A stretch of DNA of 64,000 nt from an uncultured bacterium (GCA_963727525.1 CAVSGO010000006.1:46906-110905); one strand, 5' to 3'; counted from the stretch's first letter, positions 1-57,078 are shown. A program made the numbers and translations. The notes: generated by a model from the letters alone, not told the origin.

Positions 1-1815
1 GATTTCGTGACGGCCGGCTTCCAGCGAACCGCGAACCAGGTTTGCGACCTCGCGTCCGGCCATGTCGTACACCGTCAGCGACACGGGCGCGGCCGAGTCG
101 AGGCGGAAGGCGATCAAGGTGGCCGGGTTGAACGGGTTGGGCGAGTTCTGCGCGAGGGCCACCGTGGCGCCGGCTCCTGGCACGTCGGTGATGCCGGCCG
201 TTTCGGCAAGGGTGACCGAGCGCGTCGTCTGCCCGTCCACGACACAGTGGTAGACGCCGTAGTCGGCTGCGGTCACGCCCGCGAGCGCGAGGTCGGCGGC
301 CGTTTCACCCGGGAGCGGCGCACCGTCGCGGTACCACTGGTAGCTGCTGCCGCTCAGCTCGGATTCGATCGCGAAGGTGACGACGGCGAGGCCCTGAGAT
401 CCGGCTCCGACTGCCTGATCGGTGGTGCCTGCCATCGTGATCTTGGTATTGGTGAATGCGCCCTGGTTCACGAGGTCACCCGTGGCGCGGATCCGCAGGG
501 GATAGGTGCCGTCCTGCACGGTGCCGGTGTTCTGCAGCGTGCCTTCGATGACCGCCTCGGCGCCCTGATAGTAGTCGCAGGTCACCGTGCCGACGATCGT
601 CAGCCCGGCGGTGAATGTGGTCGTGCCTGCGATCTTCGCATCGCCCAGCACGCCGTGGTCCACGGTCACGCCCGAGATGGAGCCGGACCCGGTCACGCGG
701 ATCACGTTGCCATTGGCGATCACGGTGCCCGATCCCAGACCGCCGAAGTTCGTGAACTCGAGCGAGCTCCCGGGAGCCAGTGCGAGGGTGCCGACGCCGA
801 GTCCGACGCCGCTGGCCAGGCGCAGCGGGGTGTCGGCGACGATGGTCGCCGCCTGGAACTCCGGCAGGAAGATCGGAGCCGTGCACACGGCGTCCGGGCT
901 CATGCTCAGGTGGTGGGTCGTACCCACGCCCGTGAGCTCGAGCGTCGGGTTGCTGATCGTGCCATTGTTCTCGACATCGCCTCTCACGCTGAGCGAGAAG
1001 CCGTAGTCGTCGTTGGTGATGAGCCCGTTATTGACGAGATCACCATTGACGACGACGCCACCACCGCCCGTGGCGGTGGGATTCCGCAGGCTGTTCATGA
1101 CGACCAGCCGCGTGACGACCGTCGCTCCCGCGGAGCGCGCGTCGCCGACGAAGACGACATCGTCGAGCGTGCAGGACTGGAGATACGAGTACGACTCGAA
1201 CCGCAGCTCGTTCCCGTTGGCGGCGATGGGGCCCTTGCAGATGGTGGCGGTGAGGGTGAGCGGGCAGTCGGGGGACAGGACGAGGCGGCCCCCGGTGAAG
1301 TCGATGTCGCCGCCCACACTGATGGGCGTGGTGGCGACCAGGTCGCCCGAGGCGCCGGCCGCGAACGACAGCGTCGTGTTGCAGTCGCTCCCGGCGCCCT
1401 GCGACATCATCCGCGTGGCACTTCCGGTGACGCGGGCCCGCCAGGGCGTGAAGACGCCGGAGTTGTGGAAGCTGCCGCCGAACTCGACCTCGAGATAGTA
1501 CCCATTCACGTTGCCGACGGCGCCGAGGTTTGTGAAGTCGCCGGCCACCTGCAACGTGCGCGGCGGCGCGACCAGGGCGCCGTTCACCGATCCCAGGGCT
1601 TCGACAGCGATGGTCTGGCACGGGTCGAGGCCATCGATGAGCACGGGCCCGGCGACCACGACATCGTCGCCGGCACCCGGAACGACGCCGCCAACCCACG
1701 TGGCCGCGCTCGACCAGTTGCCGCCGGCGGCAGTGGAAGTGATTGTGGCGGCCTCGGATAGCGAGGCCAGGGATATCAGGACAAGCGCCATGATGAGGAA
1801 CGAGCGAGTTCTCAT
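1..1815 (-). CDS. Secreted beta-helix/adhesin-like repeat protein, 5' partial in window (C-terminus runs off the window start); C-terminal FlgD-Ig-like/T9SS-like sorting domain begins near nt 150
   Basis: Manual reverse-complement translation from ATG 1815..1813 gives MRTRSFLIMALVLISLASLSEAATITS (signal peptide), then G/T/N-rich beta-helix-like repeats, and near the window start ...NSPNPFNPATLIAFRLDSAAPVSLTVYDMAGREV..., the same motif as the C-termini of five other proteins here. The frame is open to nt 1. The gene is absent from the supplied ORF track because no stop codon lies inside the window. Confidence 0.7.
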   Translation of the reverse strand, partial: MRTRSFLIMALVLISLASLSEAATITSTAAGGNWSSAATWVGGVVPGAGDDVVVAGPVLIDGLDPCQTIAVEALGSVNGALVAPPRTLQVAGDFTNLGAVGNVNGYYLEVEFGGSFHNSGVFTPWRARVTGSATRMMSQGAGSDCNTTLSFAAGASGDLVATTPISVGGDIDFTGGRLVLSPDCPLTLTATICKGPIAANGNELRFESYSYLQSCTLDDVVFVGDARSAGATVVTRLVVMNSLRNPTATGGGGVVVNGDLVNNGLITNDDYGFSLSVRGDVENNGTISNPTLELTGVGTTHHLSMSPDAVCTAPIFLPEFQAATIVADTPLRLASGVGLGVGTLALAPGSSLEFTNFGGLGSGTVIANGNVIRVTGSGSISGVTVDHGVLGDAKIAGTTTFTAGLTIVGTVTCDYYQGAEAVIEGTLQNTGTVQDGTYPLRIRATGDLVNQGAFTNTKITMAGTTDQAVGAGSQGLAVVTFAIESELSGSSYQWYRDGAPLPGETAADLALAGVTAADYGVYHCVVDGQTTRSVTLAETAGITDVPGAGATVALAQNSPNPFNPATLIAFRLDSAAPVSLTVYDMAGREVANLVRGSLEAGRHEI

Positions 1816-1940
1816 GATTCATCCCCTTGCTGGCGTCATATGGGTGAGGGCATGGTCGATGGCATAAAGGCTACCATAATTGTTCGTTTTAATTCAATGA
1901 AAATATGATATCAAAACCGGCGTCACGCGGCGCCGGGAGG

Positions 1941-1976: not shown

Positions 1977-2046
1977 CCCTCATTCCATCGTGACCGCTGC
2001 ACATCCCGACGCGAAATCACGCATCTCCCTCAAAGGGAGGTCCAGG

Positions 2047-5000
2047 ATGGATACGAAGCTGCTCGTCTTGCTGGCCGCGCTCGCGCTTGCCGCGCCGGCT
2101 CTTGCCGTCACCCGGGTCGTCGATCTGGGTGGAGGTGGCGATTTCATGACCATTCAGCCGGCGATCGACGCATCCGCCAGTGGCGATGTCATCGTCGTGC
2201 ACGCCGGGACGTACACCGGCTCCGGCAACACCGGGCTCAATTTCGGTGGGCGCAATCTCACACTGCAGGCGTCGAGTGGTGCCGATGTCACCGTGATCGA
2301 CGCGGAGCAGTCGGCTCGCCTGTTCGTCTTCGCCAGCGGCGAGACCGCGGCGGCCCGGGTCGAGGGGTTCACACTCACGCATGGGCTGAGCGGGAGTGTC
2401 GGCGGGGCGGTGTACATCCAGGATGCGTCGCCAACCTTCGTGGACTGCTATCTCGTGGAGAACAGTAGCGATGCGCACGGCGGCGCCGTGTACGTGCAGG
2501 GTGGGGAACCCAGCTTCGACGGTTGCACCTTCGTGGGCAACACCACGCAGGGGCGCGGGGGCGCGCTCTGGATCGACGGCGCCGCCTTCGTCACCATCGA
2601 CCAGGCCACGATCACGGGCAACACGGCCAACCTGAGCGGCCTTTCGCACAACGGCGGTGGGCTGGTCGTTTCGGGCGATTCGCATCTCCAGCTCACGCGG
2701 TCGATTCTCTGGGGCAACCGCGCGGGCGACTTCGATGATCTCTACGTGCTCGGCACGTCGTCGGCGGCGATCTCGTGCTGCGATGTCGACAGCGGCGGGA
2801 TCGGCGGGGCAGGGGGCGTGGACTACGGCGCGGGTGTCGTCGTCAGCGATCCGCATTTCTGCCAGCCGGCCTATTGCCGCGCGTCGCCCTGGGGTGATGG
2901 CGACTATGGACTGGCCGCCAACTCGCCCTGCCTCCCCACGAACAACGCCTGCGGCGAGCGGATCGGCGCCTGGCCGCAGTCCTGTGGCGAGGTGGTGGTG
3001 TGGACCGGCGGTGCCGGCACCACGGCGTGGGAGAACCCGAACAACTGGAGCACGCACAATCTACCGGGACCGGGGGACAACGTGCAGATCACCACGGGGG
3101 ACGTGGTGCTGGCATCGACGGCCGAGATCGGTATTCTCACGCAGTGCAGTGAGAGCGACGACTCCGACCTCACGCTCACGATCACGACGGGCGGTCACCT
3201 GCTGCTCGCGTCCGGCGTCACCGACAAGGAAGTGCATGTGGCCACCGTCACTTCCGACAAGACGGTGATCGAGAACGGAGGTGAGGCGAGCACCGGCACG
3301 AACAACGTTCCGCAGCTCTGGCATCTCCTGGGCGAGTTCGATCTGAATAACGGTCACGTGAACGGCGCCCTCACCCTGGACGGTTCGGGGGCGGCCAATT
3401 CCAGTGGTAACAGTTCGCTGGGCCACGACACCAGTGTCATCAACCGCGGGCACACGCCGAACAAGGTGGCAGGCGCACCTGGTCTGAACGTGGTGAGCGG
3501 TACGCTCACGGTGGACGGCACGCTAAAGAACCACGGCGACATCAGCATCGCCGGCGGCGCCGCGCTGCAGCTCGGCGGCACGCTCGATAATCTCGCCGAC
3601 GGGGCCATCGCGCTGGAAGGCAGCATCACCGGCAACGGCAGCCTATCCAATCGCGGCGCCATGACCAAGACGGGTGCGACTGCGAGCGATGTCGTGCCCG
3701 GCGTGACCAACCTGCGCGACGCCGGTGGTGCCGGCACCATCGTCGTGAGCGAGAACGTGTGGCGCGTGGGTGGCGCGTTCAGCAACAGTGGACTCGTGGG
3801 CATCGCCGACGGCGCCACGCTGCGGCGTACGGGTACGATCACCAATGCGGCCGACGGCATCATCCAGCTTGCCGGCAACATCGGCGGTGGTGGCCTGCTC
3901 ACCAATCAGGGGCTGGTGCAGCGCAGTGGCGCCGGCACCAGTACCGTGACCGGCACCATCGCGAACACCGCCGACTTGGACACGGGCGACCGGGGTCGGT
4001 TGCTCGTGCCGACCGGGGCCTTGAACCTGACCACGCTACGCAGCGACGGCATCGTCGATGTGAGCGCGGGCGCCGCGCTCACCGTCACGAGTGAACTCAT
4101 CAGCGGCGACGACGCGCGGCTTTCCGGGGGCGGCTCCGTCGACGTGGTGACAGCCTCGTTCACCAACACCGGCCGCGTGCGGCCCGGCGCCTCGCCCGGT
4201 ACGCTCACCGTGGTGGGCGACTACCCGTCCACGCCGTCCACGCGCCTCTTCGTGGAGCTGGGCGGCACGGCGCCCGGCACCCAGTACGACCGGCTCGTCG
4301 CCACGGGCACGGCCACGCTCGGTGGTGCGATGCACGTGGCGCTGATCAACGGCTTCGTGCCCAGCGTCGGCGATACGTTCACCGTGCTCACGGCGGCGAG
4401 CGTGCTTGCGACGTTCGACTGCGTGTCCGGCCTGCCCGTGGCGCCCGGTTTGCGCCTGGTGCCGAGCGTGCTGAGCGACCGCGTGCTACTCGTGGCCACG
4501 GCGGGCGACGATGGCGATCAAGCCCCTCTGGCGGTGCGCGACGACGTGATCGTGTCCGACAGCCTACCCTCGACGTTGTCGCCGCTGGCCAACGATAGCG
4601 ATCCCGATGGCGACGGACTCACCCTGGTGAGCGTGATCGTGGCGGCCACCGCAGGCACGGCGCGGGTGAGCGTGGACGGCGAGACCATCACCTACTGGCC
4701 GCCGGCCGCGTCCACAGCGCTGGACAGCCTCGTCTACGTGGTCACCGACTGCGCCGGCGCAGTCGATTCGGCCACCGTGGTGCTGCACCTGGCCAACACC
4801 ACGGCCACGCCCGATCCGCCCGAGCCGTTGCCCGATGCGGCGTACAAGCTGTACCCGAACACGCCCAATCCGTTCAACCCGTTCACGAGCATCCGTTTCG
4901 ACGTGGCGCGGCCGGGGCCGATGCGCGTGGCGATCTACGATCTGCGCGGCCGCCTCGTGCAGACGCTCACCGATGGCTTCCACGCGGCCGGTACCTATGC

Positions 5001-5118
5001 CACGTCATGGCTCGGGCAGGACGCCCTCGGGCAGTCCGTGGCCTCGGGGGTGTACGTGGCGCGCCTCGAGGCGCCGGGCCGGGTGGTGGCCACGCGCAAG
5101 CTCACGCTCGTACGGTGA
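2047..5118 (+). CDS. Large secreted right-handed beta-helix (pectate-lyase-fold) repeat protein with a C-terminal FlgD-Ig-like/T9SS-like sorting domain (1023 aa)
   Basis: ORF 1990..5118; start moved to ATG 2047 (MDTKLLVLLAALALAAPALA signal peptide) with GGGAGG RBS 8 nt upstream. G/T/N-rich parallel beta-helix repeats (VVHAGTYTG, NTTQGRGGALWIDG...). C-terminus LYPNTPNPFNPFTSIRFDVARPGPMRVAIYDLRGRLVQTL...GVYVARLEAPGRVVATRKLTLVR. Confidence 0.85.
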   Translation: MDTKLLVLLAALALAAPALAVTRVVDLGGGGDFMTIQPAIDASASGDVIVVHAGTYTGSGNTGLNFGGRNLTLQASSGADVTVIDAEQSARLFVFASGETAAARVEGFTLTHGLSGSVGGAVYIQDASPTFVDCYLVENSSDAHGGAVYVQGGEPSFDGCTFVGNTTQGRGGALWIDGAAFVTIDQATITGNTANLSGLSHNGGGLVVSGDSHLQLTRSILWGNRAGDFDDLYVLGTSSAAISCCDVDSGGIGGAGGVDYGAGVVVSDPHFCQPAYCRASPWGDGDYGLAANSPCLPTNNACGERIGAWPQSCGEVVVWTGGAGTTAWENPNNWSTHNLPGPGDNVQITTGDVVLASTAEIGILTQCSESDDSDLTLTITTGGHLLLASGVTDKEVHVATVTSDKTVIENGGEASTGTNNVPQLWHLLGEFDLNNGHVNGALTLDGSGAANSSGNSSLGHDTSVINRGHTPNKVAGAPGLNVVSGTLTVDGTLKNHGDISIAGGAALQLGGTLDNLADGAIALEGSITGNGSLSNRGAMTKTGATASDVVPGVTNLRDAGGAGTIVVSENVWRVGGAFSNSGLVGIADGATLRRTGTITNAADGIIQLAGNIGGGGLLTNQGLVQRSGAGTSTVTGTIANTADLDTGDRGRLLVPTGALNLTTLRSDGIVDVSAGAALTVTSELISGDDARLSGGGSVDVVTASFTNTGRVRPGASPGTLTVVGDYPSTPSTRLFVELGGTAPGTQYDRLVATGTATLGGAMHVALINGFVPSVGDTFTVLTAASVLATFDCVSGLPVAPGLRLVPSVLSDRVLLVATAGDDGDQAPLAVRDDVIVSDSLPSTLSPLANDSDPDGDGLTLVSVIVAATAGTARVSVDGETITYWPPAASTALDSLVYVVTDCAGAVDSATVVLHLANTTATPDPPEPLPDAAYKLYPNTPNPFNPFTSIRFDVARPGPMRVAIYDLRGRLVQTLTDGFHAAGTYATSWLGQDALGQSVASGVYVARLEAPGRVVATRKLTLVR

Positions 5119-5140: not shown

Positions 5141-5722
5141 ATGACGGAAGAATCGCGGGTCGACGTGACGCGCATGCTGCAGTCCATCGAAGGTTCGGCC
5201 GCCGACGAAGGCGCGGCCAATCGCCTCTTCGCGGCCGTCTATGACGAGCTGCACGGCATCGCCGCCGGGCTCATGCGCCGCGAGCGTGACGACCACACCC
5301 TGCAGCCCACGGCCCTCGTGCACGAGGCGTACATGCGCCTCGTCGACCAGACCCGGGCCGACTGGCAGAACCGTGCCCACTTCTACGGCATCGCCGCGCG
5401 CGCGATGCGCCAGATCCTGGTGGATCACGCGCGCAAGCACACCGCCGACAAGCGCGGTGGCCAGTGGCGCCGCGTGACCCTGGACGACAACGTGGCCGAG
5501 GCCGAGCAACTCTCCCTCGATATCCTCGCCGTACACGAGGCCCTCGAGCAACTCGCCCTCCGGGACGAGCGCATGGCGAAGGTGGTGGAGCTGCGCATCT
5601 TCGCGGGCCTGCACGCGCGCGAGGCCGCGCACGTGCTCGGGGTGTCGAAGCGCACCGTGGACGAGGACTGGCGCGTGGCGCGCATGCTGCTGGGCCGCGC
5701 GCTGTCGGCGGGCGCGGATTGA
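5141..5722 (+). CDS. ECF-type RNA polymerase sigma factor (TIGR02999-like sigma-70 subgroup usually paired with Ser/Thr kinases)
   Basis: MTEESRVDVTRMLQ...LVHEAYMRLVD (region 2) ...RIFAGLHAREAAHVLGVSKRTVDEDWRVARMLL (region 4 HTH). GGGAGG RBS 7 nt upstream of ATG 5141. The upstream part of ORF 4835..5722 is a read-through of the preceding gene's 3' end in another reading context. Confidence 0.85.
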   Translation: MTEESRVDVTRMLQSIEGSAADEGAANRLFAAVYDELHGIAAGLMRRERDDHTLQPTALVHEAYMRLVDQTRADWQNRAHFYGIAARAMRQILVDHARKHTADKRGGQWRRVTLDDNVAEAEQLSLDILAVHEALEQLALRDERMAKVVELRIFAGLHAREAAHVLGVSKRTVDEDWRVARMLLGRALSAGAD

Positions 5723-13718: not shown

Positions 13719-13867
13719 CGCGGGTCGTCCTGATCCGGTGTGTGCGGCCGCGCCCGGGGGGCAGACGCGTCCGGTGACCGAACTCCTACGGGCGACCGGC
13801 CGGCGAGGTTTCATCGCGTCGTGGTCGTCGTCGCGACTGGGCTTGCGCCGGCCCGGAATGCCGACGT

Positions 13868-22855: not shown

Positions 22856-22857
22856 TC

Positions 22858-42296: not shown

Positions 42297-42298
42297 GA

Positions 42299-46602: not shown

Positions 46603-47256
46603 ATGCCCTTCGCTGGACGCGATGATCATGGTTCGCCGGTTCGCGGTCACGCTCGCAGCAATGCGGTGCTGATCGTCGTTGCGGTCGTGGCCGCCGCCGT
46701 CGCCGCCGGCGGATACTTGCGGGGGGCGCCGCCGCCGACGACTGATCGCATCTACCTGCGCAGCATCGGCGGCGCGGTTGTCTTCGGACATGCGGAGCAC
46801 CAGGCTCGGGTCGCAAGCTGCCTGCCCTGCCACCATGAACTGATCCTGGGCGATCCGATCGCCTGCGCCACGTGCCACGATGCGGATGTCACGTTCGATC
46901 TGGCGTCGCATGACGAACTCGTGCAGATCGATGGCCACACCTGCGACGGCTGTCACGCGAGCGCAGATGCCACGGGTGCGCGCAACTGCCGCGCCTGCCA
47001 TGCCTCTGAGGTCGAAGGCGCAACGAGCGTGCATGCCTGCAGCGATTGCCACGATGATGCGACATACGGGCCGGCGACGTTGCCGCACGCGAGTCTCGTG
47101 ACCATCGAAGGACACAGTTGCGATGGGTGCCACACACCTCGCGCCCTTGCAGAAGCGTACCACGCGACCTGCAACGGCTGTCACCTGCGAGCCGCCCCGC
47201 AGCGATTCGCTGCAGCCGATGGTGGCGCGACGTGCGCAGCGTGCCACCTGAAGTGA
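46603..47256 (+). CDS. Membrane-anchored octahaem c-type cytochrome (cytochrome c3-like) immediately upstream of rnfC
   Basis: N-terminal TM/signal-anchor AVLIVVAVVAAAVAAGG. Eight CxxCH motifs (CLPCH, CATCH, CDGCH, CRACH, CSDCH, CDGCH, CNGCH, CAACH) in 217 aa. Confidence 0.85.
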   Translation: MPFAGRDDHGSPVRGHARSNAVLIVVAVVAAAVAAGGYLRGAPPPTTDRIYLRSIGGAVVFGHAEHQARVASCLPCHHELILGDPIACATCHDADVTFDLASHDELVQIDGHTCDGCHASADATGARNCRACHASEVEGATSVHACSDCHDDATYGPATLPHASLVTIEGHSCDGCHTPRALAEAYHATCNGCHLRAAPQRFAAADGGATCAACHLK

Positions 47257-47272
47257 AACGCGGAGGTCGATC

Positions 47273-48577
47273 GTGAGCTTGCTCAACCTGTTCAAGACAC
47301 CCGCGGCTCGCGTCCCCCGCGTGGCGCTCGGGTCCACGGCGATCGTCGACCTGCCCGATCCCGACCACGTGGTGATCCCCCTCGAGTATCCCGGTCAGAT
47401 TCGCTTTCGACCCGCGGTCCAGGCCGGAGACTCCGTGGCGCGCGGGCAGGTGATCGGCCGTTCCGAACTGGGCAACTGCGTGCACGCCTCGATCAGCGGG
47501 CTGATCAAGGAGATCCGGACAATCTGGTCGGCTAGTGGCTACCACGTTCCGGCGGTCGTCATCACCCGCGGCGACGCACCCGCGCTCACACCCACCGAGT
47601 GCCTCGGACAGTGCGGGCTCGATCTGGCCTCGGCGACACGCATCGCATTGCTCAAAGCGGGCGGTGTGATTTCCCCGTGGACCACGCCGGGCCAGGACCA
47701 CCGAGAAGCGGACATCGGCGAGTTCCCGGACATCCAGCACATCGTCGTGAAGGGGCTGAACGAGGAGCCCACGATCGTAAATTTCGAGCTGCTCATGGTG
47801 GAGGGAGCCGGCAGGCTGAAGGACGCGTTGCAACGGCTGTGCGATTTCGTGCCCCGCGCCACGATATGGTTGACGGTGGCGCGCCGCCTCGAGCCGTGGG
47901 CGCGCGAGACCTTCGAGGACCTCGTACGCGTGGTGGGCCTCGCCGAGGAGTATCGCCATCGCATCGAGCGGATGGTGGTGCCGCGCGTGACGGGCGTGGC
48001 CATTGCGAATACCGAGGCGTTCCGGTCGCGCGGTGTCGCCGTGCTCTCCGTCGAACACCTGCTGACCGCGGCCGATGCGCTTGCCGGCAAGCCATTCACG
48101 CACAAGACGGCGACGATAGCCGGAGGCCTTCTGCGCGAGCCGGTGACCGTGCGCACACCGGTCGGAACGACGATCGGGACCTTGCTCGCGAGCCAGGGCA
48201 TGAGCGCCGCCGACTACGGTCGTCTGATCGTCGGCGGCCCGATGCGCGGCATGACGCAGTATACCGACGAGACGCCGTTGAGCAAGTTCCAGCACGGCGT
48301 ATTGGTGATGGCAGCGTCCGAGCTGCCGGCGGAGCTGAACCGTACCTGTGTGAACTGCGGCCGCTGCACGCGCGCCTGTCCCGTGCACCTGCAGGTGCAC
48401 CTCATCGGGCGTTGCGTGGAGTACAACCTGCTTGCCGAAGTGCCTTCGCGCCACCCAGAGGCCTGTCACGAGTGCGGGCTCTGCGCCTTCGTCTGTCCGG
48501 CTCATCGGCCCCTGGTGCAGATGATGAAGATCGCCAAGCGTGCGGGCGTGACCGAGACGAGCGAGGCGGTGGCATGA
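47273..48577 (+). CDS. rnfC: Rnf electron-transport complex subunit C
   Basis: GTG 47273 with GGAGG RBS. RnfC_N-like N-terminus, IVGGPMRG, C-terminal 2x[4Fe-4S] (CVNCGRCTRACP, CHECGLCAFVCP). Not evaluated: no canonical GGxGFP FMN/NADH motif was seen by eye. Confidence 0.8.
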   Translation: MSLLNLFKTPAARVPRVALGSTAIVDLPDPDHVVIPLEYPGQIRFRPAVQAGDSVARGQVIGRSELGNCVHASISGLIKEIRTIWSASGYHVPAVVITRGDAPALTPTECLGQCGLDLASATRIALLKAGGVISPWTTPGQDHREADIGEFPDIQHIVVKGLNEEPTIVNFELLMVEGAGRLKDALQRLCDFVPRATIWLTVARRLEPWARETFEDLVRVVGLAEEYRHRIERMVVPRVTGVAIANTEAFRSRGVAVLSVEHLLTAADALAGKPFTHKTATIAGGLLREPVTVRTPVGTTIGTLLASQGMSAADYGRLIVGGPMRGMTQYTDETPLSKFQHGVLVMAASELPAELNRTCVNCGRCTRACPVHLQVHLIGRCVEYNLLAEVPSRHPEACHECGLCAFVCPAHRPLVQMMKIAKRAGVTETSEAVA

Positions 48578-49608
48578 TCCCGACGATCATCGACACGCGG
48601 CCGGCGACCGACCAGGCGCCCAGGAACGATCGCGACGCTCAGCACGACCACAAGCTGAGCGTAGCCGAGGGGCCGCACTGGCACGACGGCAGTTCGCTCA
48701 CGCGGACACAGATTCTCTGGCTTATGGCGCTGCTTCCCGCGGGCGTGGCGAGCGGCGTCATGCTCGGCGCACCGGCGTTGCGGGTGATGGCGCTGGCGGT
48801 CGCGGCCGCGATCGCCTTCGATGCCCTCGCCAACCGCGTGATGTCCCTGCCGGATGCCACCTCGAACGGCAGCAGCATCACTCTCGGCCTGCTGCTCGCC
48901 TTTCTCCTGCCGGTCGACGCGCCGTGGTGGTTGGTGGTCGTGGGCTGTTTCCTGACCATCGTGATCGGCAAGAAGCTCTTCGGTGGCTGGGGCGGCTATC
49001 CCGTGCATCCGGTGGCGCTGAGCTACGCGATGCTCGTCGTGTCGTGGCCAGCGCGGATGGACGTCACGGCGTCGCTCGTGCACGCGACCTGGCGCGCCGC
49101 ACCGGTGGAACCTCTACGGCTCGTCAAGACCCTCGGCGCGGCCGCCGCCGCGCAATACGACCTCCACGACCTCCTGCTCGGCGTGCAGACCGCTGGCGTG
49201 GGCGACGCGATGGTGCTGTGGCTTCTCGCGGGCGGTGTCTTCCTATTCCTCGTCCGGCAGGTGCCCTGGCAGATTCCGATCGGTGTCGTCGCCGGCGTGG
49301 TGCTCTGCGCCTGGCTGCTCGGCATGGCCGACCCCGGGCGCACGGCCACGCCGGCCTTCCAGCTCCTGGCGGGCGGTACGGTGTTCATGGCGTTCTTTCT
49401 GGCGCCGGAGCACACGACATCGCCGGTCAACCCGTGGCCGATGTTCCTCTACGGGTGGTTGGGCGGCGTGTTGCTCGTGCTGATCCGCGCGTTCTCGAGT
49501 CACATCGACGGCACGGTATTCGCCGTGCTGCTGATGAACGTCGCCTGTCCGCTGCTCGACCGCCTGGGGCCCCGGATCGTCGGCCTGGAGGTGCCACGCG
49601 ATGCGTGA
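48574..49608 (+). CDS. rnfD: Rnf complex subunit D (NqrB-like integral membrane subunit)
   Basis: ATG overlaps the rnfC stop (ATGA). Polytopic membrane profile with the conserved GGWGGYPVHPVAL-type segment and the FMN-attachment-region context (TSPVNPWP). Confidence 0.8.
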   Translation: MIPTIIDTRPATDQAPRNDRDAQHDHKLSVAEGPHWHDGSSLTRTQILWLMALLPAGVASGVMLGAPALRVMALAVAAAIAFDALANRVMSLPDATSNGSSITLGLLLAFLLPVDAPWWLVVVGCFLTIVIGKKLFGGWGGYPVHPVALSYAMLVVSWPARMDVTASLVHATWRAAPVEPLRLVKTLGAAAAAQYDLHDLLLGVQTAGVGDAMVLWLLAGGVFLFLVRQVPWQIPIGVVAGVVLCAWLLGMADPGRTATPAFQLLAGGTVFMAFFLAPEHTTSPVNPWPMFLYGWLGGVLLVLIRAFSSHIDGTVFAVLLMNVACPLLDRLGPRIVGLEVPRDA

Positions 49609-50206
49609 AATCGGTCGCCTGGTGCTGGTGCTCGGGCTCATCGGCGTGGTGAGCGCGTCGTCGCTGGCATACGTGCGCACGACCCTCGCTCCCCGGATCG
49701 AGCGGCAGAACGATTTCTACGTGCGCGGGCCGGCGCTCGAACGGCTGTTCCAGCAGCCGGCACGCACTCTCCTGGGCAACAAGGTGACGCTGGATGCGGC
49801 CGGCACCCGCTACCTGATCTTCTTTCGGCGAGTGGACGGCGACGTCACGGGTCTCGCCGTGGAAGCGCCTGGCCACGGCGGCTACGCCGGCGACGTGGTG
49901 ATGATGGTCGGACTCGATCTTGTCACCGAACGGATGCTCGGCGTGGAGATCGTCTCGCACGGCGAGACCCCGGGCGTGGGTGCCCGGATCGAGAGACCGA
50001 CATTCCGCAAGCAGTGGCGAGGCTTGCCGATGGACGACACGCTGAATCTGCGCACTGCGGGCGGCAACATCGACGCGATCAGCGGTGCCACCTTCTCGTC
50101 GCGTGCCATGATCGACGGCACCAACCAGGTCGATGGCCCTGATGCGGGATCACAGGGCCGACATCCTGGCGCGCATAGCCGGGAACTAGACGGAGAGCGG
50201 TCATGA
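49601..50206 (+). CDS. rnfG: Rnf complex subunit G (FMN-binding); last ~20 codons possibly frameshifted
   Basis: N-terminal TM anchor ([19 protein letters not shown]), FMN-binding-domain motif [14 protein letters not shown]. From about nt 50130 the +1 frame reads ...[18 protein letters not shown] (protein-like, RnfG-like C-terminus), whereas the called frame reads [23 protein letters not shown]. Confidence 0.7.
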
Positions 50207-50815
50207 CGTTCAGGCAGGCACTCACTCACGGGTTCTGGCGAGACCTGCCGCCTTTCCGGCTGGTGCTTGGCCTCTGCCCGGCTCTGGCCGTCACCTCGGC
50301 CGCGCCCAACGGGCTGGGCATGGGGTTGGCGGTGACCTTCGTGCTGATCTTCTCCAACATGTTCATCTCGCTGCTGCGCCGGGTGATCCCCGAGCGAGGT
50401 ACGGATCGCCAGCTACATCGTGGTGATCGCCAGCCTCGTGGTGCTCGTGGAACTGGGCATGAAGGCGTTCTTCTTCTCGCTCTCCCAGCAGTTGGGGATC
50501 TACATCCCGCTCATCGTCGTGAACTGCATCCTGCTGGGGCGCGCCGAGGCGTTCGCCTCGCGCAATCCTGTGCTGCTGTCCGTGGCCGACGGGGTGAGCG
50601 TGGGGCTGGGCTACACGGTCTCGCTCACGTTGATGGCGTCGGTGCGCGAGGTCCTGGGCGCCGGCACGTGGTTCGGCCATACAGTGTTCGGACATGGTTT
50701 CGAGCCCTTCGGTTTCATGGTCAGGGCGCCGGGGGCGTTCCTCTGCCTGGGCCTGCTCCTCGGACTGATGAATGCCTGGAGCCGCAAGCGCGGCGAGTTC
50801 TTCGTGCAGACGTGA
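50203..50815 (+). pseudogene. rnfE: Rnf complex subunit E, interrupted by a +1 frameshift at about nt 50392-50404
   Basis: ATG 50203 (GGAGAG RBS): [64 protein letters not shown], then junk in-frame. The conserved continuation (E)[43 protein letters not shown]... is in the next frame (ORF 50420..50815). Removing one G from gagcgaGgtacgg joins them. Confidence 0.8.
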
Positions 50816-50829
50816 CGGGAGACCGTGCC

Positions 50830-51405
50830 ATGAACCTGATTCTGCTGACCGTGAGTGCGATCTTCGTACACAACATCCTGCTGGCGCAATACCTGGGCAA
50901 CTGCCCGTTCTGCGGCGTATCGAAGAGGATCGAAACCGCGACCGGCATGGCGGTGGCCGTGGTATTCGTGACCACTCTGGCGTCGATCTTCACCTGGGGC
51001 ACGTATCACCAGATTCTCGTGCCATTGCACCTGGAGTACCTGCAAACGCTGGTCTTCATCCTGGTGATCGCGGCCCTCGTGCAGTTCGTGGAGATCTTCC
51101 TCAAGAAGAAGAGCCGTTCCCTCTACAACGCGCTCGGGATCTACCTGCCACTGATCACCACGAACTGCGCCGTGCTGGGGATCGCGTTGCTCAATATCAA
51201 GAACAACTTCGGCTTCGTGCACATGGTGGTGTATTCCGCCGCCAGCTCGGCGGGATTCGGCCTTGCCATCGTGCTGTTCGCCGGGGTGCGCGAGCGCCTC
51301 TTCCTGTCGCCGGTGCCGCGGTCCATGCAGGGGACGGCGATCGCCCTCGTCACGGCCGGCATCATGTCGCTCGCGTTCCTGGGGTTCGCGGGCATGGTCG
51401 AGTAG
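50830..51405 (+). CDS. rnfA: Rnf complex subunit A
   Basis: ATG 50830. [27 protein letters not shown]...[19 protein letters not shown] (RnfA/RnfE family signature). Confidence 0.85.
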
Positions 51406-51420
51406 CCACGGAGACGCACC

Positions 51421-53511
51421 ATGTGGATCCCCGCTGTCGTCCTCGGAGGTATCGCCGCGATCGCGGCGGTGGTGCTGGGCATTGCGGCGCGCGTCTTCCA
51501 CGTTCAGGAAGATCCGCGGATCAAGGCCGTCAATGACCTGCTCGCCGGCGCCAACTGCGGGGGCTGCGGCTACGCGGGCTGCGTCGCCTGTGCGGAGGCG
51601 ATCGTCCGCGGCGAGGTGGAGCCCAACGCATGCGTGGTCGGTCAGGCCGATGTGGCGCGCGCCGTCGCCTCGTTTCTGGGCATGGAACTGGCCGACACGG
51701 AGCCGCAGATCGCGTGCCCCGACTGCCAGGGAGGGTTGCGCGCCTCGCGCAAGTACGCCTACGCCGGCTTTGACGACTGCCGCGCTGCTATGCTCTATTT
51801 CCACGGCCCCGTGTCATGCCAGCACGGATGCCTCGGGCTGGGCACCTGCATCCGCGCCTGCAAGTTCGGGGCGATCACGATGGGGCCCGCCGGGTTGCCC
51901 CTCTTCGATCCTACGCGCTGCGTGGCCTGCGGCGCCTGCGCTCGCGCTTGCCCCAAGGGCATCATCTCGATCATTTCCGAGACGACCAAGATCCTGCACT
52001 GGAATCGCTACACCGAATGCCTGGCCCCGTGCCGGCAGAAGTGTCCGGCGCAGATCAACATCCCCAAGTACATCGAGCACCTGAAGCGCGGCGAGTTCGC
52101 CGAGGCGTTGCTGACGATCAAGGAGAGCAACCCGCTACCGCTCTCCACGGGCCGGGTATGCCCCGAGCCGTGTGCCCTGGCCTGCCGGCGACATATCGGC
52201 GACGAACCGGTAGCGATCAACTATCTCAAGCGCTTCGCGGCCGACTGGGAAATGAGCTCGGGGCGCCGCCTGCACATCCCTGTGCTTCCGGATACCGGCC
52301 GGAAGGTCGCGGTGATCGGAGGCGGGCCAGCCGGACTGTCCGCGGCCTACTTCCTGCGCCGCCTCGGCCACGCCGTCACCATCTATGATCAGATGCCGGC
52401 GCTCGGCGGCATGCTGCGCTACGGCATTCCGGAGTACCGTCTTCCCAAGCGTGTTCTCGACTGGGAGATCGAGGGCATCCTGGCACTCGGCATCCAGGCC
52501 GCGACCGGTGTCGCTCTGGGCAAGGACTTCACCATCGATTTCCTGCGCGCCAATGGTCACGACGCGATCTTCCTCGCCGTGGGTGCATGGCGCGACAATG
52601 GCCTTGGCCTCGAGGACGACGGCGTCTCTGGTATCGTGAGCGGCATCGAGTTGCTGCGGCGCATGCAGACGTCCGCGCCGATCCCCTTACGTGGACACGT
52701 GATCGTGATCGGCGGCGGCAACACCGCCATCGATGCCGCGCGCACCGCCCTGCGAGCCGGCGCGAGTCGGGTGAGCATCGTGTATCGCCGTTCGCGCGAC
52801 GAGATGCCGGCGAATCCGGCCGAGATCGTGGCCGCTGACGAGGAGGGCGTGCGATACCGCTTCCTCAGCGCGCCCAACCGCATCGTATCCGACGCCGGCC
52901 ACGTCACCGGGCTCGAGATTCTGCGCATGGAGCTGGGCGAACCCGATCCCAGCGGTCGGCGAAGGCCCGTGGCGATCGCGGGATCGGAAGAGACGATCCC
53001 GTGCGACCTGATCATCGAGGCCGTGGGCCAGATGCCCGACATCGATTTCCTTGCGGTGCCGGGCATGCCGTCGTTGCCGACAACGCGCTGGAACACGATC
53101 GACGCCAGCGAGGACACGCTACAGACCGATGTGCCCTACATCTTCACCGGTGGTGATTGCTTCACGGGACCCTCGCTCATGGTCAACGCGATCGGTGCTG
53201 GTCGGTATGCGGCACGATCGATCCACTATTACGTGACCGAGGGCAGGATTCCGCCAATCGAGCACCGACAGACCGAACTCATCAGCGACTCGCTCTACGA
53301 GTCCATCGCGGGTGTGGCACCCCGCCCTCGGGTGCACGAGCCCGTCGTGACGCTGCAGGACCGCCTCGGCACTTTCAATGAGGTCGAGGGCACGATCGAC
53401 GAAGAGGATGCCCTCTACGAGGCCGCGCGTTGCCTGCATTGCGGCACCTACTGCTATGACCACGATCTGGAGCAGGAACGTCTGCGGCAGGAGACCGAGC
53501 AGCCGGCGTGA
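51421..53511 (+). CDS. rnfB: RnfB (N-terminal membrane anchor + Fe-S/ferredoxin domains) fused to a GltD/NfnB-like NAD(P)H-dependent FAD oxidoreductase (696 aa)
   Basis: GGAGA RBS. MWIPAVVLGGIAAIAAVVLGIAA, NCGGCGYAGC (RnfB cluster), two 4Fe-4S ferredoxin motifs (CIRACKFGAI / CVACGACARACP); then KVAVIGGGPAGLSAAYFL (FAD GxGxxG) ... VIVIGGGNTAIDAARTA (NAD(P) GxGxxA) ... TGGDC as in glutamate-synthase small-subunit-like flavoproteins. Confidence 0.8.
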   Translation: MWIPAVVLGGIAAIAAVVLGIAARVFHVQEDPRIKAVNDLLAGANCGGCGYAGCVACAEAIVRGEVEPNACVVGQADVARAVASFLGMELADTEPQIACPDCQGGLRASRKYAYAGFDDCRAAMLYFHGPVSCQHGCLGLGTCIRACKFGAITMGPAGLPLFDPTRCVACGACARACPKGIISIISETTKILHWNRYTECLAPCRQKCPAQINIPKYIEHLKRGEFAEALLTIKESNPLPLSTGRVCPEPCALACRRHIGDEPVAINYLKRFAADWEMSSGRRLHIPVLPDTGRKVAVIGGGPAGLSAAYFLRRLGHAVTIYDQMPALGGMLRYGIPEYRLPKRVLDWEIEGILALGIQAATGVALGKDFTIDFLRANGHDAIFLAVGAWRDNGLGLEDDGVSGIVSGIELLRRMQTSAPIPLRGHVIVIGGGNTAIDAARTALRAGASRVSIVYRRSRDEMPANPAEIVAADEEGVRYRFLSAPNRIVSDAGHVTGLEILRMELGEPDPSGRRRPVAIAGSEETIPCDLIIEAVGQMPDIDFLAVPGMPSLPTTRWNTIDASEDTLQTDVPYIFTGGDCFTGPSLMVNAIGAGRYAARSIHYYVTEGRIPPIEHRQTELISDSLYESIAGVAPRPRVHEPVVTLQDRLGTFNEVEGTIDEEDALYEAARCLHCGTYCYDHDLEQERLRQETEQPA

Positions 53512-53949: not shown

Positions 53950-55619
53950 TGGACACGAAGCTGCCCGGAATCGTCGTGACCGGCGCCTCCGGCTTCATCG
54001 GTCGGCACTTCCTGGCCAGTGCGGCCGGACGCTACCGGCTGTTCTGTCTGGCGCGCCGCTCGCGCGAGGAGTCGCAGATTCCCGCCTACGAAAACCTGCA
54101 TTGGTCGCAGGTTGACGTTGCGCGCTGGGACGACCTACGCGAGGTCGTGCATTGCGTGAAGAGCCATGGAGGCGCGTCTGCCGTGCTTCATCTCGCCGGC
54201 TACTACGACTTCCACAACATGGAGCACCCCGAATACGAACGCACGAACGTGAAGGGGACCCGCAACGTTCTCAAACTGGCGCGTCAGCTCGGTGTCGGTC
54301 GCTTCATCTTCGCCAGCTCCCTGGCCGCGTGCCGGTTTCCGCCGGCGGGCCTGGCGATCACCGAGGATTCGCCGGCCGACGCCGGATTCGCCTATGCCCG
54401 GAGCAAGCGCGACGCGGAGGAACTCATCTGCGCGCATACCCAATGGATCCCAGCGTCCATCGTGCGCCTCGCTGCGGTCTATAGCGACTGGTGCGAGTAT
54501 CCACCGCTCTATGTCTTCCTGAAGACGTGGCTATCGGACGGCTGGAACGCCTGCATTCTCGGGGGGCGCGGCGAATCGGCGGTGCCGTACATTCACGTCC
54601 AGGATCTGGTGAAGCTCTTTCATGTGATCCTCGAGCGCAGCGCTACGCTGCCGCGACTGGCCGTGTACAACGCCAGCCCGAATTCAGTGGCCAGCCATCG
54701 GGATCTGTTCCAGATGGCGACGCGTGCATACTACGGCACGGACATCCAGCCGCGATGCGTGCCGCGCGTACTGGCGGTACCGGGCGTGTTCCTGCGCTGG
54801 TGGCTCGGCAAGGCCCGAGGGGCGGCGCCGTTCGAGGCGCCCTGGATGATGCGGTATGTGGACGCGCAGCTCCGGGTCGATGCCAACCGCACCCATGCGG
54901 CGCTCGATTGGCGCCCGGCGCCGCGCATGGACGTCGTACGACGGCTACTGGTGATGATCGAGAATATGAAGACGCACTCCGAAATATGGCATCAGCGCAA
55001 TGAGGCGGCTCTACGGCGCGTGGCATACCGTCCCAATCTCGTCATCGCCCGGATCCTCGACGACCTGCGCGAGGAGTTGATCGCCCGGATCGCCGAACGG
55101 GTGAATTCACCGGATCTGGCCTCGCAATTCGCCGGATATCACGACATGGAGCGCGAGACGCTCCGCTGGTACCTCGCGTTGCTCTACCAGGTGCTCGTGG
55201 CGTCCGTGCGCACGCGCGACCGGCAGCTCATCCGGCACTACGCCCAGGTCATCGCCACGAGACGCCAGCAGGAGGGTTTCTCGTCCGACGAAGTGCGCGA
55301 CTTCCTGATCCTGGTGGGCAAGATCGTGACTGAGACGTTGCGCACGCATGCCGAGCTTGTGGGGCACGAGCAGCCCATTCACGACAATGTCGGTCTGGCG
55401 TTCCAGCTCGCGGTCGACGGCATCGAGGACGTCTACGAAGCTCACGAGGCGCTCAATCCGGAATTGATTGCGCGGGGGCAGGGCTTCGCGGAACTGGGCT
55501 CGAACCGCGACCTCGAGCATATGGTTCACCAGCTCCGCGATCTCTGTGGCGATGTGTTCCCGACGCCCGGTGTCCACGCGAACACGGCCACGACGGATCG
55601 TCCCGTCATCGGACCATGA
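53949..55619 (+). CDS. NAD-dependent epimerase/dehydratase (extended SDR) family protein with a ~250-aa C-terminal helical extension (556 aa)
   Basis: ATG 53949 (MDTKLPGIVVTGASGFIGRHF = GxxGxxG Rossmann). YARSKRDAEE (YxxxK). The upstream part of ORF 53508..55619 is read-through. Confidence 0.8.
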   Translation: MDTKLPGIVVTGASGFIGRHFLASAAGRYRLFCLARRSREESQIPAYENLHWSQVDVARWDDLREVVHCVKSHGGASAVLHLAGYYDFHNMEHPEYERTNVKGTRNVLKLARQLGVGRFIFASSLAACRFPPAGLAITEDSPADAGFAYARSKRDAEELICAHTQWIPASIVRLAAVYSDWCEYPPLYVFLKTWLSDGWNACILGGRGESAVPYIHVQDLVKLFHVILERSATLPRLAVYNASPNSVASHRDLFQMATRAYYGTDIQPRCVPRVLAVPGVFLRWWLGKARGAAPFEAPWMMRYVDAQLRVDANRTHAALDWRPAPRMDVVRRLLVMIENMKTHSEIWHQRNEAALRRVAYRPNLVIARILDDLREELIARIAERVNSPDLASQFAGYHDMERETLRWYLALLYQVLVASVRTRDRQLIRHYAQVIATRRQQEGFSSDEVRDFLILVGKIVTETLRTHAELVGHEQPIHDNVGLAFQLAVDGIEDVYEAHEALNPELIARGQGFAELGSNRDLEHMVHQLRDLCGDVFPTPGVHANTATTDRPVIGP

Positions 55620-57078
55620 CCATCTTGCGCGTGAGCACGTGGCCCGCCTGCTCGAGGCGGTACACGTAGACCCCGGCCGGCATCGCGGCGCCTTGGTCGT
55701 CGGTGCCGGCCCACATCGTCACGTGGTGGCCGCCGTCGCGTTCGGCGTCGACGAGGGTCCGTATCCGTCGGCCGCGCTGGTCGAAGATGGCAAGTGTGAC
55801 GTGATCTCCGCCGCGCCGCACGTCGTACCCGATCGTGGTCTGGGGATTGAAGGGGTTGGGAATGTTCTGCTCGAGGGCGATGGCGTTGGGCACGCTGTCG
55901 ATGTTGACCGTGGTGCCCGTGATGCGGTAGACCGTATCGCCGCCGACGTCGACCACGTACAGTTCGCCGAGCCCATCCTGGCCGATCGACGCGAGCCCGC
56001 CGAAGCCGCCCGGCGGCGTGATCTGGTCGGTCCAGTCCGTGACCGGTCCGAATCCGCTCGCTGCCGACCACGCGCCACTCCAGATCTGACCGCTGCAGTA
56101 ATCGGCGAAAAAATACTGGCCGGCAAGCGCCGGTAAGGCGTCGCCGCGATAGACGTAGCCGCCTGAGATGGAGCATCGAAACGGGGTGCCGCCGTGCGAG
56201 TACTCGTGGACCGGCAACACCAGGGTGCCGTCGTTGCAATCACTCGGCGGATCGTAGCAACTCGTGCCTTCCATCAGGTGCCAACCGTAGTTCTCACCAC
56301 CGCTCGAGCTGGCGGGTTGGACGTCGATTTCCTCCAGCTCACCCTGGCCCACGTCGGCGATGTAGAGATCTCCGGTCTGTCGATCGAAGGAGAAGCACCA
56401 GGGGTTGCGCAGGCCGTAGGCCCAGATCTCGTCACGCCCGGGCTGGCCCACCAGGGGATTCGAGGGCGGATTGGTGTAGCCGGGTGCCATGGCCACGTTG
56501 ATGCGCAGGATCTTGCCCAGCAACAGGTCGACATTCTGCGCCCTGTTCTGCGGGTCGCCGGCTGAGCCACCGTCGCCCAGGCCGATGTAGAGCATGCCGT
56601 CCGGCCCGAACTGCAGGCACCCGCCGTTGTGGTTGCTGTACGGCTGTGTCACCGAGATCAGGTGCTCGGCGCTCGTGGGGTCGGCGACGTCGGGATCGGC
56701 GCTGACATGGTAGCGTACGATCTGCGTGTCGCCGTTGACGTCGGTGTAGTCGACGTAGAAGCGACCCGAGATGTCATAGTCGGGCGCGAAGGCGAGCCCC
56801 AGGAGTCCACGTTCGCTCCCCGTGCCGACCAGATCGGAGATGTCGAGGAAGACATCGAGTCGGTTGCCGCCCTGGTCGTAGACCTCGATACGTCCACCCT
56901 GCCGCACGACGAAGAGGCGAGGATCGCCATCCGGCGCGACGAGCCGCACGGGCTGAGCGATGTTCGTGATCACCGGTTCAACCGCAAGGACGGCCGCAGC
57001 CAACTGCGGGCGCATGGTTATCGCAACGAGGATGATAACGAGCGCGGCCAGTACGGGCCGCGAGAATGTGCGTAGCAT
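55606..57078 (-). CDS. Secreted PQQ-dependent sugar dehydrogenase (soluble glucose/sorbosone dehydrogenase family beta-propeller) with a C-terminal FlgD-Ig-like/T9SS-like sorting domain (490 aa)
   Basis: GGAGG RBS. Signal peptide. GLLGLAFAPDY, HNGGCLQFGPDGMLYIGLGDGG, YGLRNPWCFSFD, ENYGWHLMEG (sGDH-family motifs). C-terminus QNIPNPFNPQTTIGYDVRRGGDHVTLAIFDQRGRRIRTL...GVYVYRLEQAGHVLTRKMVMVR. Confidence 0.85.
   Translation of the reverse strand: MLRTFSRPVLAALVIILVAITMRPQLAAAVLAVEPVITNIAQPVRLVAPDGDPRLFVVRQGGRIEVYDQGGNRLDVFLDISDLVGTGSERGLLGLAFAPDYDISGRFYVDYTDVNGDTQIVRYHVSADPDVADPTSAEHLISVTQPYSNHNGGCLQFGPDGMLYIGLGDGGSAGDPQNRAQNVDLLLGKILRINVAMAPGYTNPPSNPLVGQPGRDEIWAYGLRNPWCFSFDRQTGDLYIADVGQGELEEIDVQPASSSGGENYGWHLMEGTSCYDPPSDCNDGTLVLPVHEYSHGGTPFRCSISGGYVYRGDALPALAGQYFFADYCSGQIWSGAWSAASGFGPVTDWTDQITPPGGFGGLASIGQDGLGELYVVDVGGDTVYRITGTTVNIDSVPNAIALEQNIPNPFNPQTTIGYDVRRGGDHVTLAIFDQRGRRIRTLVDAERDGGHHVTMWAGTDDQGAAMPAGVYVYRLEQAGHVLTRKMVMVR

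Follow-up and report, generated by a model that had tools for sequence, protein, structure and literature searches.

A C-terminal domain of approximately 86 amino acids is common to six secreted proteins with otherwise unrelated cargo encoded in the window, which here denotes the whole 64,000-nt stretch of DNA that was analyzed. [quoted passage not shown] The homology of the copies, their strictly C-terminal position, their fold, their motifs, and a borderline-to-clear membership in TIGR04183 are established. The shared tail is a real but ordinary observation, that of a probable lineage variant of a well-known C-terminal sorting domain of the T9SS; the kind of system is already known and no new kind is revealed.

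The six carriers are denoted (a) through (f). Gene (a) (positions 1 to 1815, minus strand) is cut by the window edge, and its full sequence, which includes 96 nt beyond position 1 and encodes a protein of 636 amino acids, was taken from an identical Logan contig (L044). Its signal peptide is MRTRSFLIMALVLISLASLSEA, the visible part of its tail is encoded by nt 1 to 150 (minus strand), and its cargo yielded weak Ig-like matches. Gene (b) (2047 to 5118, plus strand) encodes 1,023 amino acids with the signal peptide MDTKLLVLLAALALAAPALA, a Big_9/cadherin-like domain at approximately residues 825 to 915, and a tail at nt 4855 to 5115 (plus strand) that ends in TRKLTLVR; a recorded product begins at this same start. 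Gene (c) (13868 to 15619, minus strand) encodes an S8 subtilase of 583 amino acids with the signal peptide MRYPWLLALALLVALPAAA and a tail at nt 13871 to 14128 (minus strand), which begins with the most divergent start motif, VTPFSG, and ends in TGRVVKVR. The start positions of genes (b) and (c) were corrected to 2047 and 15619, respectively.

Gene (d) (24116 to 27886, minus strand) encodes 1,256 amino acids comprising an S8 subtilase, a CarboxypepD_reg domain, and a proprotein-convertase P domain, with the signal peptide MRRFLMTLILAVTVVLVVPSAARA and a tail at nt 24119 to 24376 (minus strand) ending in LHKMMLVR. Full-length orthologues that retain the tail were identified in Krumholzibacteriota and in other FCB phyla. 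The adjoining gene (e) (27969 to 29342, minus strand) encodes a HAF-repeat protein of 457 amino acids (TIGR02913, 26.6 bits against a cutoff of 22.65) with the signal peptide MKKLLMILSVVALIAIGATGAFA and a tail at nt 27972 to 28229 (minus strand) ending in ASKMMLVR; the (d)/(e) pair is kept in L002. Gene (f) (55606 to 57078, minus strand) encodes a glucose/sorbosone (PQQ-type) dehydrogenase (GSDH) of 490 amino acids with the signal peptide MLRTFSRPVLAALVIILVAITMRPQLAAA and a tail at nt 55609 to 55869 (minus strand) ending in TRKMVMVR. A seventh tailed gene (884 amino acids) starts at position 63984 on the plus strand, extends in the window to position 64000, and runs off the right edge. Within 10 kb after it follow an eighth (313 amino acids) and a ninth (675 amino acids, with a beta-helix/NosD domain), all three being read from an identical contig (L045).

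The sequence-only reading had proposed that six proteins share one C-terminal domain, and this was borne out by six open reading frames and by leave-one-out HMMs, which recovered every copy at E values of 1e-15 to 3e-29, whereas, of 790 six-frame segments, the best one outside the family reached 0.5 to 1.6; the resemblance far exceeds what chance would give. Pairwise identity among the six tails ranged from 31 to 53% (BLAST E values of 6e-7 to 3e-25). Similarity among the cargo regions was not significant (best BLAST E value of 0.05), and whole-protein paralogy was rejected as the source of the common tail. All six carriers encode a Sec-type signal peptide and a single tail with 0 residues after it, and a six-frame search of the window revealed no further copies. 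The consensus proposed earlier, (N/S)PNPFNP..T.I.F...D..GR.V..L...G.H..W.G.D..G...SGVY..RL...K....VR, agrees with the alignment of the tails, and the high local density that had been claimed goes on past the window edge, with nine tailed genes in approximately 75 kb (window plus flanks). The earlier cargo labels were confirmed for the S8 proteases (c) and (d), the HAF-repeat protein (e), and the PQQ dehydrogenase (f). The label of beta-helix adhesin for (a) and (b) found no support in Pfam, NCBIfam, or PDB sequence searches, which returned Ig/cadherin-like domains only; specifically, a PDB sequence search with the cargo of (b) gave no match to a beta-helix.

Profile searches support the earlier description of the tail as both FlgD-Ig-like and T9SS CTD-like. 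Pfam FlgD_ig (PF13860) matched all five copies that are complete in the window at 27.9 to 41.3 bits (e.g., 27.9 in (b), 34.5 in (f), and 41.3 in (c)) against a cutoff of 27. TIGR04183 aligned end to end (positions 3 to 70 of 72) and passed its cutoff of 23 bits in four of the six in-window proteins, namely (a) when complete (33.9), (e) (24.9), (c) (24.8), and (d) (23.3), with (b) (22.6) and (f) (22.4) falling short by less than 1 bit. The seventh, eighth, and ninth tailed genes scored 24.4, 32.9, and 19.2 bits, respectively. Among the profiles named in the sequence-only reading, PF13860 and TIGR04183 were matched to these extents and Por_Secre_tail (PF18962) was not, reaching 20.2 bits in (e) against a cutoff of 27. 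Homologues grade from those matching FlgD_ig alone, through those matching FlgD_ig and PF18962, to those matching PF18962 alone, and annotated homologues carry the NCBI name ‘T9SS type A sorting domain-containing protein.’ The identification of any tailed protein as PorU or PorZ was rejected, given that the CTD regions alone match.

The tail was modelled as an all-beta domain of 86 residues (pLDDT of 90.7), and the model is a compact Ig-like beta-sandwich that superposes on solved T9SS CTDs, one of which was the best match in a structural comparison. A profile built from 53 tails matched the CTDs of PorU, RgpB, PorZ, and the Flavobacterium johnsoniae substrates 8glj and 8glk in the PDB. The strongest sequence matches were to FlgD Ig domains (E value of 3e-9, versus 1.7e-3 for PorU); however, FlgD matched only the core (profile positions 40 to 99), whereas the T9SS CTDs matched across both ends of the domain.

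The type A CTDs of the T9SS that have been solved (Porphyromonas gingivalis RgpB, PorU, and PorZ; Tannerella forsythia mirolase; F. johnsoniae NucA and RemZ) share with the tail a strictly C-terminal position, a length of approximately 70 to 90 amino acids, an Ig-like beta-sandwich, and an occurrence on Sec-exported proteases, adhesins, and enzymes. They also share a ‘(Y)PNP...’ N-terminal strand, a central G-x-Y, a conserved Lys near the end followed by hydrophobic residues, and a restriction to the FCB group. The tail differs from them in being nearer to Pfam FlgD_ig than to PF18962, in TIGR04183 scores that straddle the cutoff, in an extra conserved WDG-x-D-x-x-G loop in common with FlgD, and in a rigid PNPFNP start and [LV]-[KR] end (mostly VR in this genome). 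With the FlgD Ig-like domain the tail shares the core beta-sandwich and the pattern D..G..V..L.....G.H...WDG.D..G..V..G.Y; however, FlgD aligned to the core only (71 of 88 residues) and has neither the PNPFNP start nor the basic terminal strand. The NCBIfam FlgD equivalogs likewise matched only a core of approximately 55 residues, at 20 to 27 bits versus cutoffs of 230 to 383.

The sequence-only reading had described an invariant terminal Arg as a potential part of the recognition or cleavage signal. Five tail termini are visible in the window and that of gene (a) lies outside it; the full protein ends in TRKCTLLK, i.e., in Lys, and the claim of invariance is therefore wrong. The seventh, eighth, and ninth tailed genes end in KLSLVR, KLTMLK, and CMLLVR, such that VR ends seven and LK two of the nine tails in the approximately 75 kb, and across the family tails end in K or R, more often in K. 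All copies have S-G-[VLT]-Y and a K or R at position -6, and the consensus of the end strand is RKM-x-L-[LV]-[KR]. A role for the last residue in cleavage is unlikely because PorU cuts where the CTD begins, at its N-terminal side, and not at its C-terminus. The functionally important basic residue of T9SS CTDs is a Lys that precedes the end by a few residues (PMC10994853), and a C-terminal motif with this conserved Lys is needed for export and contacts PorV (PMC10994853, PMC11285876). In an alignment with the CTD of mirolase, which is short and not significant alone, the canonical Lys lies opposite the K at -6; a 23-residue C-terminal profile was too short for significance against the PDB. The basic end strand probably matches the motif that canonical CTDs conserve at their C-terminus, with the K at -6, and not the final residue, as the apparent equivalent of the near-invariant, PorV-contacting Lys.

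The host is an uncultured member of the Krumholzibacteriota within the FCB group, in line with the earlier view of the tail as typical of several FCB-group candidate phyla. The nearest named relatives of SpeA (67 to 77% identity) and of protease (d) (51 to 54% identity) are from Candidatus Krumholzibacteriia or Krumholzibacteriota. A sequence identical to the arginine decarboxylase (634 amino acids) is present in the protein collection. One study (PMC5317091, citing Rinke 2013) describes TIGR04183 as confined to the FCB superphylum, and a review indicates that several non-Bacteroidota FCB phyla may have a T9SS (PMC11285876).

The same core fold is widespread outside of the window. The tail family comprises more than 500,000 cluster representatives, and elsewhere the core, with the same core motifs, is found in hundreds of internal copies arranged in tandem within very large surface proteins, at up to 15 per protein in the database matches. 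This, together with Pfam FlgD_ig being the sole model over cutoff in all five complete in-window copies and FlgD supplying the best PDB sequence matches, would be expected if the tail were no more than a FlgD-type Ig-like domain of general structural or adhesive use, C-terminal by chance and with no sorting role. We consider this improbable, since each of the six unrelated Sec-exported cargoes bears the tail once, with nothing following, and since only C-terminal copies combine a PNPFNP start with a basic end strand, a systematic difference from internal ones. Among the best 150 database proteins, the last strand was present in all 40 C-terminal copies, of which 30 had the PNPFNP start and 34 a K/R end, whereas it was absent from 857 of 869 internal copies, of which 56 had and 813 were without a PNPFNP-like start. 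Related FCB loci totalling 675 kb held 44 copies, every one of them C-terminal and nearly all with a K/R end. The internal copies are presumably structural spacers and not signals. The partial coverage by FlgD, as opposed to the coverage of both ends by T9SS CTDs, also argues against a generic domain. In the Pfam description of the flagellar protein, a Tudor-like domain harbors the Ig domain as an insertion; the FlgD N-terminal/Tudor part is absent here, where the tail forms the end of secreted enzymes, and no flagellar genes were identified in the window. An anchor of the exosortase, sortase, or rhombosortase type (PEP-CTERM, LPXTG, or GlyGly-CTERM class) was also weighed on account of the basic terminus and of the HAF repeat in protein (e), given that HAF-repeat proteins often carry PEP-CTERM. 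It was rejected as exceedingly improbable because the hydrophobic helix is absent: no segment of the tail is transmembrane-like (maximum 19-residue Kyte-Doolittle-type [KD19] hydropathy of 0.5 to 1.35, versus 2.5 to 3.1 in the signal peptides). The predicted 86-residue all-beta fold and the lack of a match to any PEP-CTERM, LPXTG, or similar NCBIfam model point in the same direction.

The tail might instead truly act from the C-terminus in export or attachment, but be served by strongly divergent or reduced machinery, or by another outer-membrane system, and not by a canonical Bacteroidota T9SS. We regard this as unlikely, if somewhat less so than a generic domain. In its favor, SprA/Sov, PorV, PorU, PorZ, and PorK/L/M/N were not identified in the window or its flanks of approximately 11 kb (approximately 75 kb in total, or 2% of the genome), and no T9SS components were found beside the clusters of tailed genes in two Krumholzibacteriota MAGs, where the neighbors screened for PorV and other T9SS parts were identified instead as a BamA-like protein, IspH, a flippase, and glycosyltransferases. 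In the literature searched, no paper tied Krumholzibacteriota to the T9SS or to type IX secretion and none addressed the T9SS in uncultured FCB MAGs. The closer affinity of the tails to FlgD_ig than to Pfam Por_Secre_tail is also compatible with divergent machinery. Moreover, Caldithrix abyssi encodes TIGR04183 proteins, yet reportedly has no gliding machinery of the Bacteroidetes type (PMC5317091), and the presence of the tail may therefore not always mean a full canonical T9SS. However, the absence of T9SS genes from 2% of a genome weighs little because such genes are normally scattered, the tails resemble type A CTDs in the motifs, length, and fold that they retain, and TIGR04183 scores reach 33 to 34 bits in two of nine tails. 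The best structural match to a T9SS CTD and the listing of several non-Bacteroidota FCB phyla with T9SS genes in reviews also favor a canonical system. That Krumholzibacteriota, and perhaps other non-Bacteroidota FCB phyla with tails scoring as FlgD_ig, use the tail with non-canonical outer-membrane export or attachment machinery (a reduced, ancestral, or different translocon) is a slim prospect. If true, the FlgD-like tail would offer a view of how T9SS signals arose out of a generic Ig repeat of the FlgD type.

If the tail is a variant of the T9SS type A CTD, as we favor, the N-terminal Sec signal peptide seen on each carrier would take the protein across the inner membrane and the protein would fold in the periplasm. 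The beta-sandwich tail of approximately 86 residues would then be recognized by a SprA/PorV-type translocon in the outer membrane and cut off at the Pro/Thr/Ala-rich linker that is visible immediately upstream of PNPFNP in the carriers. The cargo, i.e., the S8 proteases (c) and (d), the HAF-repeat protein (e), the Ig/cadherin-like surface proteins (a) and (b), and the PQQ-type sugar dehydrogenase (f), would either be released or become attached to the cell surface.

The value of these findings is modest and practical, and lies in better secretome prediction for Krumholzibacteriota, where the tag is borne by a large share of the local secretome. The source of one database homologue calls it a ‘flagellar hook assembly protein FlgD.’ Copies of the sorting type can be told from internal repeats by a PNPFNP start, an RKMxL[LV][KR] end, and a location at the extreme C-terminus, and a C-terminal ‘FlgD_ig’ match in Krumholzibacteriota MAGs is to be read as a T9SS-type sorting tag and not as a flagellar protein.

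The tail, a C-terminal domain of about 86 aa, was identified by a motif scan and a tail-built profile HMM across all six reading frames in six ORFs of the window, with no copy elsewhere in it. These are gene (a), at 1-1815(-) and incomplete at the window edge; gene (b), at 2047-5118(+); two genes that family models assign to S8 subtilases, (c) at 13868-15619(-) and (d) at 24116-27886(-); a HAF-repeat protein gene, (e), at 27969-29342(-); and a glucose/sorbosone (PQQ-type) dehydrogenase gene, (f), at 55606-57078(-). The start codons of two tailed genes were corrected before these coordinates were finalized. Each of the six carriers begins with a classic Sec signal peptide, and a ribosome-binding site precedes each gene. 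The sequence-only reading had described six secreted proteins sharing one tail, and this holds. That reading also labeled the cargo correctly in the case of the subtilases, the HAF-repeat protein, and the dehydrogenase. In contrast, family and PDB searches gave no support for the label "beta-helix adhesin" in the products of (a) and (b), where Ig/cadherin-like domains alone were detected.

Several neighbors of the tailed genes are also of note. An ECF sigma factor gene (193 aa; 5141-5722(+)) directly follows gene (b), is also present in the gene calls of L044 (a Logan contig that matches the window and extends beyond its left edge), and is followed, up to 8382, by genes for a Ser/Thr kinase-TPR protein and two TPM-domain proteins. 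A 777-aa CBM9 and DUF5916 protein, without a match to any recognized T9SS part, is encoded at 11481-13814(-). Since this gene lies 53 bp downstream of protease gene (c) on the same strand, the two may be co-transcribed.

A common tail could arise by chance similarity or through paralogy of whole proteins, and both possibilities were rejected. The tails share 31-53% pairwise identity (BLAST E 6e-7 to 3e-25), and every copy was recovered by leave-one-out HMMs (E 1e-15 to 3e-29, as compared to E 0.5-1.6 for the top-scoring unrelated one of 790 six-frame segments), which argues against chance. Once the tails were removed, the cargo regions showed no significant mutual similarity (best E 0.05), which argues against whole-protein paralogy. 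Collectively, these observations show that the tail is a single homologous module borne by unrelated carriers. An anchor of the PEP-CTERM or LPXTG type was also excluded because no tail has a transmembrane-like segment.

Model searches place the module in a FlgD-Ig-like/T9SS CTD-like family, as had been proposed, although the individual models differ in their support. All five complete in-window copies exceed the Pfam FlgD_ig cutoff (27.9-41.3 bits versus 27). The NCBIfam model TIGR04183 (‘T9SS type A sorting domain-containing protein’) matches the tails along its entire length and straddles its cutoff of 23, with 22.4-24.9 bits for the same five copies, whereas Por_Secre_tail reached at most 20.2 bits against a cutoff of 27, in one copy. 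In a database search with one tail, near homologs carried FlgD_ig alone or together with PF18962 and farther homologs carried PF18962 alone; those annotated by NCBI, from Rhodothermales, Zixibacteria, and unclassified bacteria, are named T9SS type A sorting domain proteins. One database protein, P0010, is an 89-aa fragment comprising the tail alone under the name ‘flagellar hook assembly protein FlgD’, likely a misannotation via the FlgD_ig model. A confident AlphaFold2 model of the tail (pLDDT 90.7) is all-beta, and Foldseek did not separate FlgD from T9SS CTDs. When a 53-tail profile was searched against PDB, the strongest match was to FlgD Ig domains (E 3e-9), but this covered the core alone (profile positions 40-99), whereas weaker matches to solved T9SS CTDs (PorU 6za2, RgpB 5hfs, PorZ 5m11, and the translocon-bound F. 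johnsoniae substrate CTDs 8glj and 8glk) jointly covered positions 27-108, towards both domain ends. The tail is therefore best described, from these comparisons, as a probable T9SS type A-class C-terminal sorting domain of FlgD_ig-like flavor.

The tail family is enormous: when 1.84 billion cluster representatives were searched in full with the HMM, 517,793 matched at E <= 1e-3 and 350,608 at E <= 1e-10. Giant proteins, with as many as 15 copies in tandem, scored highest. Among the best 150 representatives, the last strand was absent in 857 of 869 internal copies and a PNPFNP-like start was present in 56, while all 40 C-terminal copies reached the model end, 30 with a PNPFNP start and 34 with a K/R end. 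Since internal copies mostly lack both features, the Ig core that Pfam models as FlgD_ig is generic, and a distinct sorting-type subclass, to which all window copies belong, is defined by a position at the extreme C-terminus together with a PNPFNP start and a basic last strand. Several of the giant proteins (P0056-P0205), whose internal tandem Ig cores lack the terminal strand, have an aromatic end (...ELGF, ...EIVF, ...ELVY, ...RLLF) reminiscent of the outer-membrane beta-barrel signal.

An invariant terminal Arg had been put forward as a possible recognition or cleavage signal. Five window tails end in VR, and the sixth, that of (a), leaves the window. Sample ERR11594398 supplied two matching Logan contigs that together extend the sequence past both window edges: L044 includes the first 200 nt of the window and encodes an identical gene (b) product, and L045, on the right, is identical base for base across a 4,050-nt overlap. 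Full-length protein (a), encoded at 363-2273 of L044, comprises 636 aa and ends ...TRKCTLLK. Three more tailed genes lie within 10 kb to the right of the window on L045, the first beginning at window position 63984, with the ends KLSLVR, KLTMLK, and CMLLVR. At least nine tailed genes thus occur in ~75 kb of this genome, and the terminal Arg is not invariant because Lys ends two of the nine tails, including (a), and Arg the other seven. Related FCB loci totaling 675 kb contain 44 copies, each at the extreme C-terminus (0-2 residues remaining in nearly all), and almost all have K or R last. Database homologs together with three window proteins gave K 30, R 16, and other 4, and the 40 C-terminal copies from the best 150 database representatives gave K 22 and R 12. 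Across relatives, the final residue is K or R, K being commoner, and the consensus end is RKM-x-L-[LV]-[KR].

The PorU cleavage site lies where the CTD begins, at its N-terminal edge, which makes it unlikely that the last residue is a cleavage signal, and the role proposed for Arg in cleavage was judged to be wrong. Export by T9SS requires a motif at the C-terminus that includes a conserved last-strand lysine (PMC11285876), and in every substrate-translocon structure a near-invariant, near-C-terminal lysine contacts PorV (PMC10994853). A short alignment to the mirolase CTD (GLYFVRVVKNGQTYTQKLI versus GlYFyRLeAggftatRKMv), non-significant alone, pairs this canonical lysine with the K at -6, counted back from the last residue of the tail, and not with the last residue itself. 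The two Lys-ended tails, (a) and that of a 313-aa right-flank neighbor (L045 7474-8415), are the top TIGR04183 scorers at 33.9 and 32.9 bits (cutoff 23), and tail (a) lacks the WDG-x-D-x-x-G loop common to FlgD; ‘canonical-like’ and ‘FlgD-like’ tail flavors thus coexist in one genome.

Pfam and NCBIfam scans detected no SprA, PorV, PorU, PorZ, or PorK/L/M/N among the about 47 window genes, and no T9SS components in the recovered flanks (L044 and L045). Neither PorU nor PorZ is among the nine tailed proteins, the genes beside clusters of tailed genes in two MAGs of Krumholzibacteriota bear no relation to T9SS, and no mention of T9SS in this phylum was found in the literature searched. However, T9SS genes are scattered in Bacteroidota genomes, so that failing to find them in about 2% of a genome carries little weight, and we consider it improbable that divergent or different machinery serves Krumholzibacteriota tails in place of a canonical T9SS. 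One candidate component, an FGE-sulfatase protein (20577-21464) considered as GldK, was rejected and read as a true FGE because it adjoins a sulfatase and a radical-SAM maturase. The three genes lie in a row at 20577-24084(+), the radical-SAM/SPASM protein carrying a C-terminal SEC-C motif, such that two alternative sulfatase-maturation routes adjoin one sulfatase.

Elsewhere in the window, an Rnf-like cluster at 46603-53511(+) encodes a cytochrome c7-like protein, an RnfC-like protein, an FMN-binding protein, and Rnf/Nqr membrane subunits, followed by a GltD-like Fe-S flavoprotein. A cluster of multihaem c-type cytochromes spans 57351-63814(+) and continues into L045; its members have 368, 341, and 873 aa, and the 873-aa protein is a fusion with a cytochrome b561-like membrane domain. 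The cytochromes flank a 522-aa protein (58470-60038) without a family match, and together these proteins may serve extracellular electron transfer as a porin-cytochrome conduit. According to a published survey, multihaem proteins are unusually numerous in MAGs of Krumholzibacteriota (PMC11495043).

The FCB-group context of the tail is borne out by two proteins. Protease (d) has full-length, tail-retaining orthologs in Candidatus Krumholzibacteriota/Krumholzibacteriia (51-54% identity) and unclassified MAGs (up to 59%), with more distant orthologs in Kryptonia, Calditrichia, Marinimicrobia, and Bacteroidota-labeled MAGs; a KSB1 locus also has tail copies. The nearest named relatives of the arginine decarboxylase are nearly all Krumholzibacteriia/Krumholzibacteria (67-77% identity; one at 80% is labeled Latescibacteria), which confirms the Krumholzibacteriota placement. 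Tailed genes form conserved tandem blocks of 3-4 in three Krumholzibacteriota-like MAGs (L003, L011, and L021), and the pair (d) and (e) is conserved in a related locus (L002), so that tail-bearing genes tend to cluster. Several non-Bacteroidota FCB phyla may have T9SS (PMC11285876), and a passage in PMC5317091, citing Rinke et al. (2013), describes TIGR04183 as a C-terminal domain of extracellular proteinases that is exclusive, though not universal, to the FCB superphylum. Most of the biology of the tail is already covered in the literature, and the feature is of a known kind, correctly observed. It marks a set of secreted proteins encoded at high local density in the genome of a Krumholzibacteriota member, which is of some practical value for annotation.
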